From NCBI RefSeq assembly GCF_018350175.1, contig NC_058368.1:34040001-34104000 (forward strand): a stretch of DNA of 64,000 bases. The letters run 5' to 3'. Shown in pieces: positions 4,072 to 22,381 of this stretch. The notes beneath the pieces are model-generated. The model saw only the letters and a list, made by a program, of their open reading frames with translations, had not been told where the DNA came from and did no database searches. Source of the stretch: Felis catus. Its lineage: Eukaryota. A program made the position numbers and the translations under genes. Within the stretch, counting starts at the first letter, position 1; the number at the start of each line of letters is the position of its first letter.

Positions 4072-7000
4072 GCCTATACCTGTCTTTTTTTTTTCCTCCA
4101 ATTTCAATTAAATATATTTTTCTGAACAAAAGGATTCTATACCTTATATGACTCTGGTAATATTATTTAAAAATATATGATATACTTTGAATATATCTAA
4201 AATATGTTAGATAGTGATTGCTGAGTTTGAATTATTATCAAGGGAATGTAGAGTGCCTTTTACATAGTAAAATGGTCAGTGGGTAGAAAAAAGTGCAATT
4301 TCTGGTAGGACTGAAAATTTAAGAGAATTGTGCCAAATGCAAAAAAGACAAATGCACTTGGTAACAAAATAAGAACAAATGAAGGTTGTAGACTATAAAC
4401 TTTGGCAAATGTCTTTGTCAAAAACTAGATCATCTCTTCAGAATTTTAAATTGAACATAGTAACAAGGTGACTTATAGATTATTTTTTTCTGTAAACCAA
4501 TATTCTCTATTCTCTTTTCTGTGCTAATATCACAATAGGCATCATTTAAACATGTGCTTGAGGCAGACTTATTTTCAGGTGTTTCCATCTGTTGTGGGAA
4601 TATACTTGAAGAATAGAAGAGAAACATACACAAATTAAACACAAAGCCAGGGGAGAAAAGGAAAAAAAAATGAGAGAAAACATCTGCAGGGAAACAGTGT
4701 GGAAAAATGTTTGAGCTGCCTGTTATTAACTACTCAACCTGTTTTACATTGGAATCCTGCATAATTACATTCTAGGGGAGGGGCAAACAACAGATGTTGA
4801 ATAAAGGTTGAAAATAAGAAAATGAGACTATTTGAAAAATAAAGCTACTTTGCTCACCAACAGGCCTTTTTTTTTTTTTTGGCATGACTTTTAGATAGCA
4901 ATTGATTTCATATATTCACTATGCATTTAGATGCACACAAAGCATTCTTTTTTTGTCTAAGAAACTGATCAATTATACACATCCATATATGCCCAAGTTA
5001 GAGGTGCTTAAAAAGCAAAACAAAAATAAAAACAAAATGCAGCATTTCTTTATAACAATAACATTTACAGTTATGTGTTGGATAAAAAAAAGAGTTGAAA
5101 TTGTTTCAGAAATATATATATTTCTTATTACTAAAATCAATACGCTTTTAACAATTGACGGTTTCTAGGGGATTGAGTAAACAGCTAAATTTCAAACAGT
5201 TTGTTGTTTCGAGCTCCAGACAATACACATCAAAATTTCACTAGCAGTGAAAACTTTTATTAGAGCCTTGTTCTCTAGGGATATTAAAGAATAGACAGTC
5301 TGCAACTTTGATTTTGGTGGCCTGATTTTTTACATATTCTACCCACTACTACAGAAAGGTTTTTTATTTTATTTAGGATAAATGAATCCATCATCGCAGG
5401 AGTATTTTTCCCATTGACCTAGGCATTCTTATAGTTACTTTGCATTGTTTCTATCTCCTCTAAATGGAAATACGCCCCCAAAGTAATTTTCTTCCCATCA
5501 CACTAAGTTTTATGCACCTGGGGAAATACAAATGACCGTATCTGTCAGGGATTGATCAATCTAAAGGATTTTCATATAAAAATTTCAATCAATAGAGAAG
5601 GATTCATGATTCAATTGGCCCTTTTTTCCCATTTGGTTTTTCTATTTGTTAACTAAAAATATTTTATTTTTCAAGCATTCCCGACTTTGCTTTCCTTTGC
5701 TATCCTCACCCTACACACCATCACAACTAGACTTCAGTCTGTTGACCTACTTCCTCCAGGTGAGCAATTTCTTCATCTGCTGGCTTTCTTCTCTGTGATC
5801 CGAATTTTACTTGTTACATGATGACACTCATAAGACTATCCACACATAAATTCAGAATGTGTAGACTTTATTCCTTTAAAGGAAAATAGAATAGTAAATA
5901 AGTAATTTATTCTATTTTATTTGCATCGCTACTTTTCAATATTTCAGGAAAAGCTGTGTAAGGTTAAGGGTTGCAAAGAGAATCTACATATTCATTTATA
6001 TCAGGGTTTGTTTTTTTCACATTTATAGTTCTTAAATGAGTGTAAGTGGTCCAATTCTTAATTGCTTAATGTAAAAAATCACCACTTGTACAAATTTCAC
6101 TTCAGAGTTAGTGCTAGGGAAATGCTAAGGAAGAAATTGGTGGAATAGAGGGCTGATATAGGAGAAGGGGATTGGTTATTTTCCTTGAATGTTAGTTGTT
6201 GGTATAGAAGAAGGTACATCACTGTTGAGTTCTGAAGAAGAAACTGTTTCACCTGAGAAATTGGGTCCACAAATTCTTCTTTCACTTTGGACAGGCAATT
6301 ACATTCCAAATTAGATGTGTTATTTTATGGAAATATATTAAAGGCTTCTTTACACATTACTTTGTAAAATCGGTACATATCACCCTAATACAGATTCCTA
6401 AAGGTAGGGCAGAACCAAGTTCATGTCAATTGCAACAGCTAGTGAAGCTCAAAATTAAAATCCCCTGAACTCGATAAATTTTGTCAATATGTTTTAATTT
6501 GGAAGTATGCTCTACATGTGACTCACATAATCTAGGAAAACACATTGAAATTTGAAATAACTGGATGGATTAAGTGAAAGACAGAAATAAGTACATATCT
6601 CAGGTGAAATTTTAGCTCATTTCATGATATTCTTCTAACTCTGGGTTGTATATAGTCCAAGTCTGAGTCATTTGAATGCTTTTGAGAGATTTCATTGGTT
6701 TCTCAGTAGTTTAATCTCTATACAAGGGAAACAAGCCAGTGGAGAAAATTAATATATCAAGTTGTCGCTGTGGTTGAAAAATACACATGTATGTTACAGT
6801 AATCTATTACTGTTATATTTATTTGTGTTGCTTTACTCAAGCCAAGAAAAGAGAAGAGGTTGCATTATTTCTAGATGGAAATGAATGGAAATTGGAGGGA
6901 AATACAAGAAAAGGCCTCAAACAGTGTTGCAGTGAGGAAATTTTTACTTATTTCCAATTTGGGGGAGTAAGGTGGAAAGTTTGACAGCATGAGTGCATGT

Positions 7001-9129: not shown

Positions 9130-9385
9130 TATAACCTTTTTCAGGAATGACCATGGAAATTGTTAGGCAGCTCCTCAAAAATAGCTTTGGCAACACAAAG
9201 GATCACTTCTTCTGAAATTGAACATACATATTCTTGGGGGGGGAAATCAAATATAGCATGCCTGAATTTAAAAAAGACTGTCTCAATGAATTCAATGAAT
9301 TCTCCTTGTGATATCAATATGAATTTCCAATTAGATTAGATTTAGATTGCAAGCCTGAAAATAAAATAAGTTTTCATATATTTAT

Positions 9386-9619
9386 TTATTTTTTTTTTTT
9401 TTTTAAATTTTTTTTTCAACGTTTATTTATTTTGGGGACAGAGAGAGACAGAGCATGAACGGGGGAGGGGCAGAGAGAGAGGGAGACACAGAATCGGAAA
9501 CAGGCTCCAGGCTCTGAGCCATCAGCCCAGAGCCTGACGCGGGGCTCGAACTCACGGGCCGCGAGATCGTGACCTGGCTGAAGTCGGACGCTTAACCGAC
9601 TGCGCCACCCAGGCGCCCC
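9386..9619 (-). mobile_element. Young Can-SINE (SINEC_Fc)
   Basis: CpG-rich body and long T tract; target-site duplication (TSD) AAGTTTTCATATATTTAT at 9368-9385 and 9620-9637. Confidence 0.97.
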
Positions 9620-10404
9620 AAGTTTTCATATATTTATATTTATTTCCCCGTTAATATTACTCATGGGGACTACACTTCACTTTTATCATCTGTTCTTTGC
9701 TCCAGGTATGACTGATTATCAATTAAATCATAGAAAGTACTCTCCAAGATAAGAAAGTATTTAAAACATCACTGTAGACACCTTTTGATGTTAATACTGC
9801 ATTATGGATAGATAAGCCTTCATATCCTTTAAAAATACATTTTTATCTTTGCTGTGATTCAAGGATAGCCTTCTCCAATAGCTTTTGACTCTCGGTTTGA
9901 TTACATAGCAGGGTGATATAGAGGGACACATCTCCTATCTTACAATATATGAATTTCGAGACCTCTTTTCCCAATTTCTCCATTGCTTCAGTGTGCTTTA
10001 ATGATTACAAAATATTAAAGCTGTTACAGAAAAATGGCTTGTCATTGCCAGTAAAATCCATTACAAGAAACACTTTTGTATATTTACTCTAGAACATAGT
10101 ATTGAGTGTATTGATTTTGCTTAAATTTTCATTCTTGGGATGACCCAATCATACAGGATAAAAAAACATCAGCTTCCAATAAACTTAAAGCACACTAAAG
10201 GTAATAAGAACAGAATGGTTTCAGAGAAGTAATTCCAAGAACAGGCTTTATTTAAATTGTTATTTCTCTTTCCTTTCCTACTCTTTATGTATTTTAAACT
10301 ATCTATAATATAGTAGCAATAATTGTTGAGCAGCTTGGTAGTAGGAGTTGTTTTAATAAAATCAAAGCCAAATTGTTTTGGTTCAAACTATTGGTATATT
10401 ACTC

Positions 10405-10467
10405 TTTTTTTTAATTTTTTAATTTTATTTATTTTTGAGAAAGAGCATGAGCAGGGGCGGGGCAGAC

Positions 10468-10511
<44 letters not shown>

Positions 10512-10634
10512 CCCAAGCAGGCTCTGCACTGTCAGCACGGAGCTTGAGGGACTTGAGTTCACTAACCGCAAGATCATGACCTGAGCTGAAACCAAGAGTC
10601 GGATGCTAATCCAACTGAGCCACCCAGGCGCCCC
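10405..10634 (-). mobile_element. Can-SINE
   Basis: TTTATTTATTTTTGAGA, (GA)n, ...GAGCCACCCAGGCGCCCC; degenerate TSD GGTRTATTA. Confidence 0.93.
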
Positions 10635-12216
10635 TCGGTGTATTAATCTAAAGTTACCTTTGGGACACTATCAATCTGAATAGTACTTTCAGACAAACTT
10701 CATTTCACAGAAGGCATTTTTGGTGAAAAATACATATTTATTATCATTTGTGTGTGTGTATGCATGCACATCAAGAACATTTACCTTTGGTTCACTTTTA
10801 AGTTGTAATATATGCAATATTTGTAGGAATCATTTATAGAGAAGTATAGTTTCATATATATTTCCCATTCATATATGTCCATAAATACATTTTGTATTGC
10901 ATCTTTCTTTAAAAACATTATGTTTTTAAAAAGTCCTGAACTGATCTGCTCTTTTGGAACCGTGTCCAACTAATTTAAGGTAAGTGAATCGAAACTTTGG
11001 ATCTATCTCTAGAGTAGAGCCCTATGAATTTTATGAAAAGCTTTCAGAGACTAGAATGTTATTGAAAATATGAAAACACAAAAATCTTTCTTAAAAAATT
11101 TATCTTTTGGGACTCCCAAATCCTGTTGGCAGGTGTTGATCACTAAATAATAAGCTAGAGAGGATTAGTTGCATCTGAATTAACTCTGTTTTCTGAGAAT
11201 GTTAAAAATGACACCCAGCTCTGTGTACTTGTCTCTAGCAATTGAAAACAAGTGCTAGAAATGAGATGAACAACGGGATTTGAACTGTACACAGATATAT
11301 ATCCCAATAGAAATCAGATAGCAAGCCTGAGAGAAAAATGCTCATGAGACTATCTTCCTTGCTTCTTGCAAGGAGTTCAGCTTAACAGGCATGTTTTCAT
11401 TGACCTTCCTTACAGGATTAGCACTTTGCTGGGAGGATGCCTTGAATTTTGGATGTATTCATCCATGTCATCAAAAATGGTGTCATTATCTGAGATGGGG
11501 TTAGCTAACAGAGGCAATAAAAACAGAAGAAAACATCGTCTTTAAAGATGAAGAATAGTAGCATATTTAAATAGTATTGGGCCTGAAATTCGGAGTAGTG
11601 TTTAAGTTGTTATAATTTTAAATTTGTCCTTGTAAACCAAACGTCTTTCACTAACTATTTCATGCCAGAGCTAGGTTTATCGCTGTATATAAATCAGGTT
11701 CTTTTTGGAAGTTGCATTAACCCTTTCAAGACTCTAAAATTACAGGGATTTATTAATGAATTCACATGTGATGATAGCTATCAGATAAAGTACAAGATAT
11801 AGACGCAGCTAACTTAAACTAAAACAGAGAAACTGGCACGTTTGACACAACAATGAAGTAGAATCAAAAAAGGACAAAAGGAGAAACCCAGGAGTGAAGG
11901 AAAAAAAAACCTATAGATGCTGAGGTGTGGGTTTTCAGGATACTTGCTGTTTTCTTTAATTTAAAAGTATAAAGAGGTGACTATTTAAATCTAGACTTTA
12001 ATTTCAATAAAGGTGCCACTGATCTAAAAAAAACCCTAAGGGGAAATATTCTGACCTCTGTGTTTACATATATATCCCAGACAGGTTTATTTATCTTATT
12101 TTAAATTATAATAAATAAATAATAATATGGAACTCTATAGGTTATCAATAATAAATAGAGAACTTTAGATTTTTATATAAGCATGGTATCTAACAGACAG
12201 ATATGATGTTACTTCA

Positions 12217-12318: not shown

Positions 12319-14359
12319 AGATCTCATGGAACTTTAAATCCTGTATAATTCACAGTGAAAGAGAGCCATTTTGCATAACATTGTTTAGGTCCTGGGATCA
12401 TTCTGAAAGCTAACCCCACAACCTCATAAATGAATGAGGAGGTTTTTTGTTTGTTTGTTTGTTTGTTTCAATTTTTTATTTAAATTCTAGTTTGAATGAT
12501 TTTGAAATAAGTAAATTATAAGGAATAGTCTCTTCTATTGTAGATTACCAATAGTATTAGATGCCTTTTTAATTTACTCTTCTTTTACATCAATGGCAGC
12601 TTTCAGGTGTAAATAATGAATGTGTTCTGTGTGCTCAAGGAATAGAGCATGAAAGAATGAAAGAATGGAACACAGTATCGGTACCTTGATCCTCAAGGTG
12701 TGTAAGGATCTCATTGAGGCAAATGGATTAAAAAACAATGAGTTACGAAGCAATGCTGGTATATATAATTCAGTGGAAAAATGTGGCATTATCTTCATCC
12801 TAAACAGGAATGCTTATCTTGGACATTTTCAGGAATTTCCTGTAGAAATTTATTCTTCATATCCGGAACCAACTTTGAAAAGTTTCTGAGATTCCTCATC
12901 TACCTTATTTGTGGTCATTCTCCTTAGCTTGTAAAATTATTTATTACCTCTCTCCTAGACACCAAACAGATCTTCTTTCTTCCAAACCTTTCCTTTTCTG
13001 GCGTTCTCAAAGAATCCTTTAATCTTTCAGATGTGCTCATATGCAATCTTATGGTTGGGTAATAATAATAGTAAATTAGAGAAAGAGTGAAGACAGATAA
13101 TCTAGATGTAAGAAGAAGAAATATTTTTAATGCAGAATTATAAAATACAGGATTTATCCTATTAATATAAAATACCAGTTGAGTCAACATGCATTAAGAC
13201 TTTCTCTAGTTTATAAGGAGTAGGATGAGATGTTAGCAGAATGGGGTCACAATGGGGTCTGAATGACTATGCCAGTGAATCATGTCATGTCCTATTGTGC
13301 TCTGCTGGAGATATCCTGGTGGGGACCAAAACTCTATATATCTGTTTCCAGAAATAATGCTGATTTGAATGCTGCTTGCCCTGTGGCTCATCTCAGTTTT
13401 GTATGTTAATAAGTGCTGTCTAATACCTTTTTGATCAAGCACGTATTTTAAAAATCTTCTGAGACATAGGACATTCAAATACCTATAATTTGAGGGCTCA
13501 TTGTCTGCTTCATTATTTATTATTATTATTATTATTCAGAGCCTTTCTATTCTCTTTTAAATCCTAGTCAATGTTCTGTACATTAATAATTTATTTTTTG
13601 GTATTGCCACATATGTCCTTTGACTCCTAAAGTGGTCTTTTACTATCTTGTGAAATGCACAGTCCTGTGTGGTTACTGTTTCACTTTCTAACCCTTTCAC
13701 CTGGATCATCCTCTTCCTGCTCTCTACTTTTTTTGAAACTCATCATCCTTTGAATTTTAGATCAAGCACTATGACTAGTACAAAGCCTTTCACAATATTG
13801 TAGTCAACACTTTTCTCTGTATTTCTGTTGCTTGACACTCATGTAACATAATTCAAAATGTAATTGATCAGGAGTTATTTGCCCTAGCTGATTTTAAACC
13901 TAGTTTCTAGTTTCCAGTCAGAGTGGAAATGCCTTAGTGAAGAAATAAATTCTTACAGACTGGAGAATTTTAGAAGTGGATACACATAGGTTTGTTTATG
14001 ACAAACTTTTACTTGATACATTACTGTTATACAACATTCTATTCAAGATGACTTTGCTTGAAAACCTCCAATGCCTAAGCACAAAGTTTGTGTTTGATTC
14101 GTTCTTACCTTGTGAATTCTTGAGTACAGCTTCTTCAAACTAACCACCGAACTGTACATATCTAATGCTGTCACTGAATTTGAGCTGTTATTACTCTCGT
14201 GGTGCATTTGAGTTGTATTGTTTTTCTTTGAGTAGCTCTGTCAGAGTCCCTCACTCACAAAAAAAAAAAAAAAAAAAAATGCAAACTTTGTTTCATTAGT
14301 ATAGTATCAAGTTTCAGAGCCAGTTCTTATCAACATACCAGTTAAGAAAGAGATGGCCT

Positions 14360-14584
14360 GGGGCGTCTGAGTGGCTCAGTGGGTTAAGCCTGCAAACTTT
14401 TGGGACTTCGGCTCAGGTCATGACCTCACAGTTCGTGAGTTCATGCCCCATGTTGGGCTCTTTGCTGTCAGTGCAGAGGCTGCTTGGGATCCTCTGTCTC
14501 CTTCTCTCTCTGTCCCTCCCTCATTTGTGCTCACTCTCTCTTTCTCTCTCAAAAATAAATAAACATTAAGAAAAGGAGCAAAGA
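14360..14584 (+). mobile_element. Can-SINE
   Basis: Head and tail present; TSD AAGAAAGAGATGGCC at 14344-14358 and 14585-14599. Confidence 0.95.
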
Positions 14585-17500
14585 AAGAAAGAGATGGCCC
14601 CATTTATCTGTGCCTTCACTTTAAGCATCTGCTGCTGCCCCAGGTGATGATGGCTGCACCTACAGATTGGGGAAGGGGAGGGACAGCTAAAATATGACCG
14701 TTAATCTCAGGGCAGTGCACTATGGGACACAATTATATTTGTGCTATAGATTCCCAATGCATGGTTTAGATTCTCACTTATAAGATATTCTTGATACTTC
14801 CATATCAAATTTCCTTATATCCTTTGGCTTTCATTCTTTAAGTTTCCGTTTAATTTAAGTTTTCTACATCTTAGAGCATTACCTATATGTGGTCAATATA
14901 TATGCCAGAAAATTCACTCTGGTAGACATGTTGTTCTGTCCAAAGGGTCACAAACACTTAAAACCATCCCTGAAGGCATGCAGGTGCACTGAATAGTATG
15001 TGCAAATGCTCCCAGTGCCCCACATAGCCAGCTGCAATTGGATTCGGTTGACTATGATATAGGCCAGTGGTTTCTGGTGTCTGAATGCAGCCGTGGCAAT
15101 ACATTCGGAAGCATTGTGCAATGCAGGTGCATGCTACAGGATTGCTGCTTCAAAGCTGCCATGGTTTGACTACTTGATAGTATTATAATAACTTCCACTT
15201 CAAAATGTGCTTTCCACCTATCAAAAGCAGCTAGAATGGCATTTCACAACTGAAGGAAAACCTGGAAGCCTGATTGGCAGTGGATCAACCTAAAAATATA
15301 TGCGTTTCTCTCTCAGTGTTTTTATTACGTGAACTGTGTGTCCAAATTCTGCTTCCTGATGGCCAGTTGTTAGGACAAAATGCAAGTTTCTGGACTCGTA
15401 ACCTGCAGTTGATTCATGGTGTCACTGCCAATGTATAAACAGACATCCTCACGAAATGAGCATATCAGCGTACGTAACACGATTCATGGTCCTGTTGACA
15501 TTAGCAAAACAAAAGAAGCTGCCTCTCTCTGTCTCAAAATAATACATAGATGTTAAAAAAATAAAAACAAAACAAAACAAAAAAAGAAGCAACAGCACAT
15601 CCCACAGGTGTATTTGTGTGTTAGTTCCTTGATCAGTAAAACATTAGATCCCCGTACACAAGAAACACAGCAAATACAATGCGGTAGATGAAAGATCACT
15701 CAGTGATCTTAGTGGTTGGTTCTCTGATGCCACATTTTCCCTAACTCCTTCCTTGTCTTCCCTGCACAAGGATGTACCAACCTTATTAAAAAATTGTGCT
15801 AAAATTAAGCCTGGCAGTCATGTGAACACTGGCAGAAAAAAAAAAGCGTGTGATAAAATTGTAATATATTCTTTTTCTTTCTTATCTGACACAGAAAAAA
15901 AAAGTTTTGAGACAAGTTTCCAACACTGTCTCTAGAAATAATATCGAGAGTGAAATTTTACCCCTCTCGTAGTCAGATAGACTGAAATCAGAAGGTTTAT
16001 TTTTAATTAATCGGCTAGTAAATGAGACATAGAAATCATAAATGGAAATAATTTGAATGAATATAGATAAGGTGCCATTTATACAGAATGATTCACCCCA
16101 TCATGATAACAAGTGTAAGGGGTTTATAGGATGGTAAAGGAAAGTAAGTGAATAATCATCAACCGCCAAAAAAAGAAAGAATTGTTTATGTTAGCAAAGT
16201 GTCAGTTCACAGGATCTTGTGAATTATGTCAACTCACTGAAAGGAAAATTTAATCACAGATTTGTTGGACTGTATTCTGATGAGGTTTCTATTTTAGCAT
16301 TGATACTTTTTATCTGATACGTTAGAATATATTTGGATTAAATCGGAATTTGTTGCACTCATAAGGAAGTGTGTGTGCATGTGCGAAATTGAGTGTGTGT
16401 GCTGAAGAACAGAAAAAGACAGCGAAAACAAGCTGTTCTCATACCAGCAAAACCTTTCAGTAGGAAACTGATACACAGAAACTGCCAAAGGTCTTGGTTT
16501 GTCATTGTTTTTTGGTAGATAATCTGTGATGGCTTCCTAGTTTAGATTCCGTAGAGTTAATCTCCCAAACACCAGTGCCAGCCATAAATAGAGATGGGTC
16601 CCTGCTCTCTGCTTTTCCAGACAGCTAATTAGGTGTTATGAAAGCTTACGTTGGTGAAAGAAGGTAAATTAGAAATAAAAAAGAAAAACGAGAACAAATA
16701 AAAAATGGACTTCCATTTATAGAGTTGTCTACTTGGAAACAACTCTAATTTTAAGATGCTGCTAGAAACCACCACTCTAAGGGAAGAAAGCTATTCCTAT
16801 TTAAAGCTGTTTACAAAGCAGAAATAAAGCCATTTTATTGACAGTCAAAAAGCAGAGAAAACTCTCTCACTTGCCCTTCCCCCATGGCCACAGCATTTTA
16901 GAACTTCCTCATTGACTCTCTGACTTGTGGAGTTTGGTTTTCGGATTTCTGTGACACCTTTATTTCTTCATTATAAAAAATTAAATCTAAAAACAAATTA
17001 AATCTGAAGCATATCTGAAATTCTTATGCTAGAAACTATATGCATGTTTTCATACAATTATCTGGGCTCTGGAGGCAGCAGTCACATGGAAACTGAGGGG
17101 AGGAAATCCTTTTATGTTTTCTAATATTTCCGTAAGTAGTTACAAATCAGTTGCCAAGCATCTCTCTTTGGGTAGTGTGCTATAGTGCTTTGAAGACAGG
17201 GAAGGTAAGCTTGATTCTGGTTTGTGATAAATTCTGGCCTGAGAGGTGAGAGAGACTAGAATAAAGGGGTAGATGTACTCCGGAGTAGGAAATTTTATGG
17301 GGGCTGGCTTCTTGACAAGTTCCCTTAGTAATGAACACCACCGAGTCATGATACGCAAGGATTGTTTCCCCTGACTCTTCCCAAAATAATCATGTTTAGC
17401 GAATGCGCCCTTAATCTTTATTAGTTCCTACTGGTTTAAATAGTGCTTTGGCTTCAAATTATAATCTTATACATAGTAATGTTTGGTACCTTTTACCTAT

Positions 17501-18200
17501 CCTTGAGATGGCTCTGCACCCCTATTGATAAAGTGACATCACAATGTTTAAATCACATTGTAAACATGAAGTTATGGAAAGCTTTATGGAAGATGGCTAA
17601 AACCCAATAATTTAAGGGCAGGTAGTTTGATGTTTTACCTAAATATTTTTTTTTCCTTGCAGGATGTAACTTCCACAATGACAGCTCCTTTGAAGGTGTA
17701 TTTTTGCACCAAACGGTTGCTTGCCTACTATCGCTAAGATTAAGTTATTAAACTGCTTAGTCTAGGTTAAAAAGAAAGCTTTCAGACATGTCAGCTAATA
17801 TGAATATGCAGATTTCAGACATCTTTATGTCTAAATCAATTTGAATTATATAAAGTTCTAAAATCAGAGGTAGTCAAGTTGTTGATCCAATCACGGATTT
17901 TGCACCAATAATTGTAGGGCAAAGGGAAAGATTAAAATGTTATTAGAGATTGATTTATACCTACCTATGTACATTATACATGTAATGCTTTATATAAAAA
18001 TGTGTACATATATATGTGCGTTTTATATGTATGTATGTTATCTCCTAAATTATGAATATAGAACATTCCTGTGCATTTCATTTTTTCATCTGTATTTCTC
18101 TTATGGCAATAACTGCTAGTAAATTTTCAGGAATGCATTGGCTATACATTTCAGTTTTAAAATTTTGTTTGGACTATATCCTGGAGAAAGGTCAAATTTA

Positions 18201-21008: not shown

Positions 21009-21044
<36 letters not shown>
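21009..21044 (+). repeat. Poly-A run (36 nt)
   Basis: Homopolymer with no SINE body upstream. Confidence 0.95.
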
Positions 21045-21046
<2 letters not shown>

Positions 21047-21698
21047 GAAGTGAAGAAAACTGATTGCATGATCCATACCCATATCTAATAAAATAGGAAT
21101 GTGCACTTTTTGACAAGTTTATTCATAACATATTCTGATAGAAAATTCCATTTGCTCCCTCAGTAGGAAAGGTAGGCTTTTAAAGGAAACCTTTTATTTC
21201 ATGACTGTCACCAAAATAACAATTACAAGCAAAATAGGGATAAAACATGAAAAAAAAAAGCAGCTTAGGGCTTGTTATGGAAGTATGTGATCTAGTTTTT
21301 GCCCCATTATTTGATTTGAAAAATTAATCCTGGTAATCCTTTTTGAAGTTCACTGTTGCCAGGATGGGTTATACAGAACAAAGACTAACTGATATCTCCA
21401 GGAGGTTAGTTTACAGTGATGTTCTATTCCACTGAGAATGATTCTCCAATGGCCACTTTTTACTTCTTCCCAGGCTATGGGAATTCATTAATATCTAGAG
21501 AATAGACTTAAATAAAACCATTGTCTCAACCAGCAGGTTTATGCAACCATCCTGAAATGTTTTAATTATTGTTTTCTTTTCCTTTTTAATTAAGAGACCA
21601 GAGGTCAAACAAGCCCACTGAGAGCTGATCGCAGCCTCAGTAGAAATTTAAAAGCAACCCTAATGATTGGATTTGCTGTTTTCTCTTTTGTTTTGCAG

Positions 21699-22381
21699 AA
21701 CCAGAAGAGTGCGTTAATTGCACAGATGAATGCCGAGTGCTTGGTCATTCTGACAGGTGTTGGATGCCACAGTTCCCTGCAGCCAATCAGGCTGAAAATG
21801 CAGATTACCGCACAAATCTCTTTGTACCCACAGTTGAAGCTAATGTTGAGACTGAGACTTACGAAACTGTGAATCCCACCGGGAAAAAGACTTTTTGTAC
21901 ATTTGGAAAAGACAAGCGAGAGCACACTATTCTCATTGCCAATGTTAAACCTTATTTAAAAGCCAAACGTGCCCTGAGCCCTCTCCTCCAAGAGGTCCCC
22001 TCAGCATCAAGCAGCCCAACGAAGGCATGCATCGAGCCTTGCACCTCAACAAAAGGCTCTCTGGATGGTTGCGAAGCGAAACCAGGAGGCCTGGCCGAAG
22101 CAAGCAGCCAGTACTTGCCCACTGACAGTCAGTATCTGTCACCCAGTAAGCAACCGAGAGACCCTCCATTCATGGCTCCCGATCAGATGGCAAGGGTCTT
22201 TGCAGATGTGCATTCTAGAGCCAGCCGGGATTCCAGCGAGATGGGTGCTGTTCTTGAACAGCTTGACCACCCCAACAGGGATCTGGGCAGAGAATCGGTG
22301 GATGCAGAGGAAGTCGTGAGAGAGATTGATAAGCTTTTGCAGGACTGCCGGGGAAATGACCCTGTGGCTGTGAGAAAGTGA
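21699..22381 (+). CDS. PCDH17: Protocadherin-17, terminal coding exon (cytoplasmic tail)
   Basis: Polypyrimidine tract and TTTTGCAG end at 21698. The phase-1 frame reads (E)PEECVNCTDECRVLGHSDRCWMP...KKTFCTFGK...REIDKLLQDCRGNDPVAVRK*, which I recognise as the PCDH17 C-terminus. CM2 motif at 21719-21769, WIRS motif FCTFGK at 21893-21910, TGA at 22379-22381. The ORF-track start at 21737 is an internal GTG (Val). Confidence 0.96.

Follow-up and report, generated by a model that had tools for sequence, protein, structure and literature searches.

An exon-like 33-nt stretch in intron 3 of felid PCDH17 that is unannotated in the protein records examined

Introduction

The locus described here raises the question of whether a 33-nt stretch of intron 3 is used as a short exon of PCDH17, whose terminal exon carries CM2 and a WIRS-like motif. 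According to PMC7339444, from which part of this motif naming is taken, the cytoplasmic tail of PCDH17 recruits WAVE complex and conveys the signal for axon extension and repulsion. A regulated insert beside CM2 could therefore serve to test how the tail works. The original prediction, made from the letters of the DNA, proposed a frame-preserving and possibly neural cassette exon that adds 11 residues just before CM2. If true, the proposal would add a further short cassette exon to an intron in which one cassette is already annotated. The analysis below indicates that the candidate sequence is real and that its proposed use as an exon is unsupported.

Results

The gene and its third intron

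The window, the whole 64,000-nt stretch of felid DNA that was analyzed, contains an open frame (21701-22381) that a protein search matched at 100% identity to the C-terminal part of Lynx and Panthera PCDH17, which identifies the gene as felid PCDH17. The landmarks are as follows; bare numbers are window positions.

C1:34040001-34104000, the window, by sequence position
C1:33969081-33971681, PCDH17 exon 1
C1:34003613-34003783, PCDH17 exon 3
21699..22381, plus strand, coding part of the PCDH17 terminal exon, with CM2 and the WIRS-like FCTFGK

Exon 3 ends as CAA G/GTGAGT, with its donor at C1:34003784 (L015:1672), and the acceptor of the terminal exon lies at 21698/21699. Intron 3 is thus 57,914 nt long, and 4,003 nt separate the candidate from the end of the intron. 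The acceptor of exon 3 is a tandem CAG-TAG (near L015:1497-1500), which accounts for pairs of isoforms that differ by one residue (QSSSTF versus QSSTF) in many species. Intron 3 also contains dispersed short repeats at 9362-9635, 10396-10645 and 14357-14574, which are presumably carnivore SINE-like, and a run of 36 A at about 21009-21044.

Signals and frame of the candidate

The branch-point consensus is yUnAy, and two sites resembling it precede the candidate acceptor.

17627-17631, plus strand, second branch-point-like site, by sequence
17634..17638, plus strand, branch-point-like yUnAy, TTTAC, with its A at -26 from the acceptor
17646..17662, plus strand, polypyrimidine tract T9-CCTTGCAG and CAG acceptor, ending at 17662
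17663..17695, plus strand, candidate 33-nt phase 1-1 cassette that would add GCNFHNDSSFE, by sequence signals and frame
17696..17701, plus strand, weak donor of the candidate, GTGTAT (after AAG), by sequence
17747..17752, plus strand, ATTAAA overlapping the read-through stop at 17749-17751, by sequence

All of the signals named in the original prediction, namely TTTAC, the T9 acceptor, the 33-nt length and the donor, are present where they were placed, and the 35 nt upstream of the acceptor are free of AG. The identification of PCDH17, the position in the intron, the phase and the frame were likewise right, as judged from the Lynx and Panthera matches, the exon mapping and the translation. Positions 17665-17694 translate without a stop as CNFHNDSSFE. 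The prediction presupposed an upstream exon ending in G, as exon 3 does, so the first codon of the candidate would be GGA. The last G of the candidate would rebuild the Glu codon of the terminal exon, and the predicted protein would read PLEQ-GCNFHNDSSFE-EPEEC. The frame would be kept equally after the 84-nt cassette described below, whose last base is G as well. The first usable GT downstream of the candidate acceptor is exactly in frame, and read-through of the donor leaves 29 stop-free codons after the acceptor.

The donor had been called moderate, with a mismatch at +4/+5. The mismatch is there, and the site is weak, at 5.4 bits on a crude weight matrix compared with 11.6 and 12.1 bits for real PCDH17 donors. 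It has 5 of 9 matches to the U1 consensus, and the donors of exons 2 and 3 have 7 of 9.

Protein records across the exon 3 junction

A set of 434 proteins was gathered. It covers the best 120 of 747 matches of one search and, for the seven largest clusters considered (226, 345, 55, 28, 71, 52 and 24 members), 15 members each; clustering at 90% can hide an 11-residue insert. The end of PCDH17 exon 3 is matched by 261 of these records; the remaining 173 either lack that end, being fragments of the terminal exon, paralogs or unrelated members of clusters, or did not fit the pattern. Among the matches listed, which include mammals, birds, reptiles and one fish, the 11-residue insert occurs in 0 of the 261. 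Exon 3 is joined directly to the terminal exon in 103 records and through a 28-residue insert in 139; inserts of 25 residues (three records, all reptile) and 33 residues (two, both from the bat Myotis daubentonii) also occur, and 14 records end otherwise. The seven felid records have an insert of either 0 or 28 residues, and the candidate insert is absent from these and from the one meerkat record. None of the 14 alternative ends matches the read-through peptide of the candidate. An alternative end from elephant (P0167) shares VTS with another frame of the candidate; the rest differs, and the resemblance was treated as chance.

The best ungapped match to CNFHNDSSFE in a sliding comparison with the 434 proteins had 5 of 10 identities, and none of the 59 matches from a search of 50% clusters contained the candidate insert. 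A 41-residue frame through the candidate returned four candidates, none with an E value of 10 or below, a threshold that an 11-residue match could not reach. All 17 of the hand-picked proteins from assembled runs that cross the junction join directly, in assemblies of a kind that drops minor forms. A metagenome pattern scan for the candidate gave 0 matches; a protein-led metagenome scan gave two distant loci with 63-64% identity, preceded by 185 and 1672 bases of sequence, that are useless for judging mammalian conservation.

In the lists used, RefSeq numbers the isoforms in order of decreasing length, and in Papio anubis isoform X2 (1186) is followed by X3 (1159), leaving no slot for a +11 form. 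Gap-free series without such a slot were found as X1-X7 in Hipposideros armiger, X1-X4 in Sorex fumeus and two Saccopteryx, and X1-X3 in Papio anubis, Macaca fascicularis, Cavia and two Rhinolophus. These series, together with the rarer intron elements that could be mapped back, reduce the concern over an incomplete protein sample.

Annotated elements of the intron

The following alternative elements of intron 3 have counterparts in the annotation of some mammal.

5676..5759, plus strand, annotated 84-nt cassette, 28 residues, between CM1 and CM2 (100% identical by tblastn to isoform X2 of Panthera pardus)
L021:5550-5582 (C1:34039249 onward), just before the window, felid counterpart of the alternative last exon of two Saccopteryx (isoform X4)
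21595-21698, plus strand, upstream alternative acceptor region of the terminal exon

The 84-nt cassette is carried by human (P0309), mouse (P0162), rat (P0150) and Panthera records and encodes a conserved, rather hydrophobic segment; no study of its function surfaced in literature searches aimed at other PCDH17 questions. The felid counterpart of the Saccopteryx last exon has a TAG acceptor and 9 of 10 identical residues followed by a stop; its use would truncate the tail ahead of CM2 and WIRS. The alternative acceptor region is annotated as used in Myotis daubentonii, where it adds 33 residues in frame, and in Hipposideros, where the frame is shifted; in the felid, splicing to the acceptor at 21594 would lengthen the exon by 104 nt and put it out of frame. 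By tblastn, other intron elements that are annotated in one mammal or another can be placed on felid DNA, none of them at the candidate. The reptile 25-residue insert (P0237, P0352 and P0355, from snakes and alligator) had no match in the searched parts of the felid intron. Intron 3 has lineage-specific elements that include 28 residues in mammals, 25 in reptiles and short alternative ends in bats, elephant and loris, and it seems that mammals and reptiles each acquired cassettes of their own in the CM1-CM2 linker. The 33-nt candidate is unannotated in the records examined, and the annotated cassette of the intron is a different, 84-nt exon.

Exon-likeness and chance

Splice sites were scored with a crude position-weight matrix rather than with MaxEntScan. 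On this scale the candidate acceptor reaches 13.7 bits, compared with 13.0 and 15.0 bits for real PCDH17 acceptors, and at least this score is reached by 5 of the 1333 AG sites in window positions 1-21600. The donor score is equaled or exceeded at 59 of 1093 GT sites. The summed score of 19.1 is the highest among in-frame, stop-free elements of 12-60 nt when both strands are read over 57,850 intron bases (the next is 17.8), and the maximum in 125,850 control bases, antisense and downstream, which overlap the antisense part of the intron scan, is 16.1. However, when the sense intron was simulated 60 times with an order-3 Markov model, 28% of the simulated introns contained an equal summed score at least once, with 0.35 elements as good as the candidate per intron; the fraction was 7% when both sites had to match separately, at thresholds chosen afterwards. 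The matrix judges real use poorly: the annotated 84-nt cassette failed its relaxed cut-offs. The candidate is thus unusually exon-like for its neighborhood, yet no more so than elements that would turn up if the long introns of a whole genome were read.

The second-best short in-frame element is a 30-nt stretch at C1:34016432-34016461 (plus strand, L019:2733-2762) with an acceptor of 10.2 bits and a donor of 7.6 bits, and no matching 10-residue insert was present among the protein records examined. CpG density did not single out the candidate site. Positions 17500-17850 match only themselves in the genome, in a search that skips common words and from which old repeats would escape.

Discussion

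The candidate is probably a skipped pseudo-exon, a reading to which we assign a probability of about 0.55. Its acceptor is strong but its donor weak, and the spliceosome would normally pass over it, splicing exon 3, or the 84-nt cassette, straight to the terminal exon. A donor mismatched at +4/+5 on an exon of 33 nt would prevent exon definition, so inclusion would be at most noise. In favor of a pseudo-exon we count the absence of the insert from all 261 records, the gap-free isoform series, the weak donor and the chance rate of 0.35 per intron. Against it we count the top score in the intron, above that of 126 kb of controls, the branch-like site at -26, the 35 AG-free nucleotides and the YGCY motifs, as well as the incomplete protein sample and a matrix that judges real use poorly.

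The YGCY motifs lie downstream of the donor.

17718..17757, plus strand, four YGCY (MBNL-type) motifs, 23-59 nt after the candidate donor

As many YGCY motifs occur in 45 of 11,505 intron windows (0.4%), a figure from one of 12 motif-by-side tests that was noticed after the fact. PMC12064062 describes downstream YGCY as the position where MBNL promotes inclusion. The cluster is the sole regulatory hint at the candidate, and its position would point to MBNL-rich tissues, not specifically to neurons. A less probable but serious alternative is that the candidate is a young cassette of cats or carnivores with low inclusion, switched by MBNL through these motifs after its weak donor and adding its residues before CM2 in few transcripts. 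An architecture more exon-like than that of the controls is consistent with such a cassette, as are the downstream position of the motifs and an intron that is already a source of lineage-specific cassettes and last exons. The missing insert in the felid and meerkat records argues against it, as does the after-the-fact notice of the cluster.

It is unlikely that the candidate is a short PCDH17 exon that is conserved in mammals, regulated by tissue and missed by catalogues, and that would tune the tail between CM1 and CM2. Its symmetric phase, stop-free frame and strong acceptor would suit such an exon, and it sits in the linker where the 84-nt cassette inserts. However, the human, mouse and rat records that hold the 84-nt cassette are among the 261 without the candidate insert. 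No UGC lies between the branch point and the candidate acceptor, the sole UGC being at -5 within the acceptor's own TGCAG, and neither GCATG nor ACTAA, nor the typical but not obligatory RBFOX motif TGCATG, occurs within 300 nt. According to bioRxiv 2024.09.17.613571, UGC is found in 74-79% of SRRM3/4 targets and is not required, and 5' splice-site strength is the feature that tracks microexon inclusion. At 33 nt the candidate is outside the 3-27-nt class of SRRM3/4-dependent neural microexons, as delimited in bioRxiv 10.64898/2026.05.02.722430, and within the micro-exon limit of at most 51 nt used in PMC4317164. The latter states that for human internal exons of 22-51 nt annotation "appears to be nearly complete" and that the flanks of symmetric alternative micro-exons are conserved.

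Literature searches found no paper on the candidate exon or on a PCDH17 microexon. A PCDH17 splicing event was absent from the searched parts of the supplements of PMC4317164 (files 2-5 of 5), PMC8437376 (where PCDH17 appears only in expression-module rows), PMC5989265 (12 of 15 files), PMC5630039 (11 of 27), PMC8187152 (3 of 4) and PMC6886504 (7 of 9), each partly covered. Similarly long odds apply to an uncatalogued, mammal-conserved 33-nt exon under MBNL control that would place 11 Cys-containing residues before CM2 and, with the 84-nt cassette, allow up to four versions of the linker. The evidence on a used, possibly neural exon is indirect; it offers no positive support and leans against such use, short of refuting it.

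Least probable is an alternative last exon, in which the strong acceptor would be used without the weak donor and the frame would run to the stop at 17749-17751, giving a tail without CM2 and WIRS: the open codons after the acceptor, the short alternative ends annotated in intron 3 of several species and the listing of Pcdh17, for a different event type, among SAM68-dependent last-exon events in PMC6909182 are in keeping with it, but its peptide matches none of the 14 alternative-end records and ATTAAA is common in A+T-rich introns.

Among known systems, the candidate shares its setting with the 84-nt cassette (Panthera pardus X2, human partial KAI2569544.1, mouse XP_006518969.1), which has the same intron, the same phase 1-1 and the same position between CM1 and CM2. 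The cassette, however, lies 12 kb upstream, is conserved and is found in more than half of the records, and the two sequences are unrelated. The reptile 75-nt insert (Erythrolamprus, Thamnophis and Alligator) likewise preserves the frame at the same junction, but encodes an unrelated peptide. With the 33-nt microexon of Snap23, which is regulated by MBNL, QKI and RBFOX2 according to PMC12064062, the candidate shares its length and YGCY motifs in the downstream intron; the Snap23 microexon was shown experimentally and has QKI and RBFOX2 motifs, whereas the candidate is a prediction from sequence and has neither motif. Shortness, frame preservation and a long AG-free zone are shared with SRRM3/4-dependent neural microexons, from which the candidate differs in its greater length and in lacking UGC between branch point and acceptor. 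Finally, like the pseudo-exons (cryptic exons) of long introns, the candidate has plausible sites at exon-like spacing and is absent from annotated transcripts; it differs from them in that it outscores local controls and keeps the reading frame.
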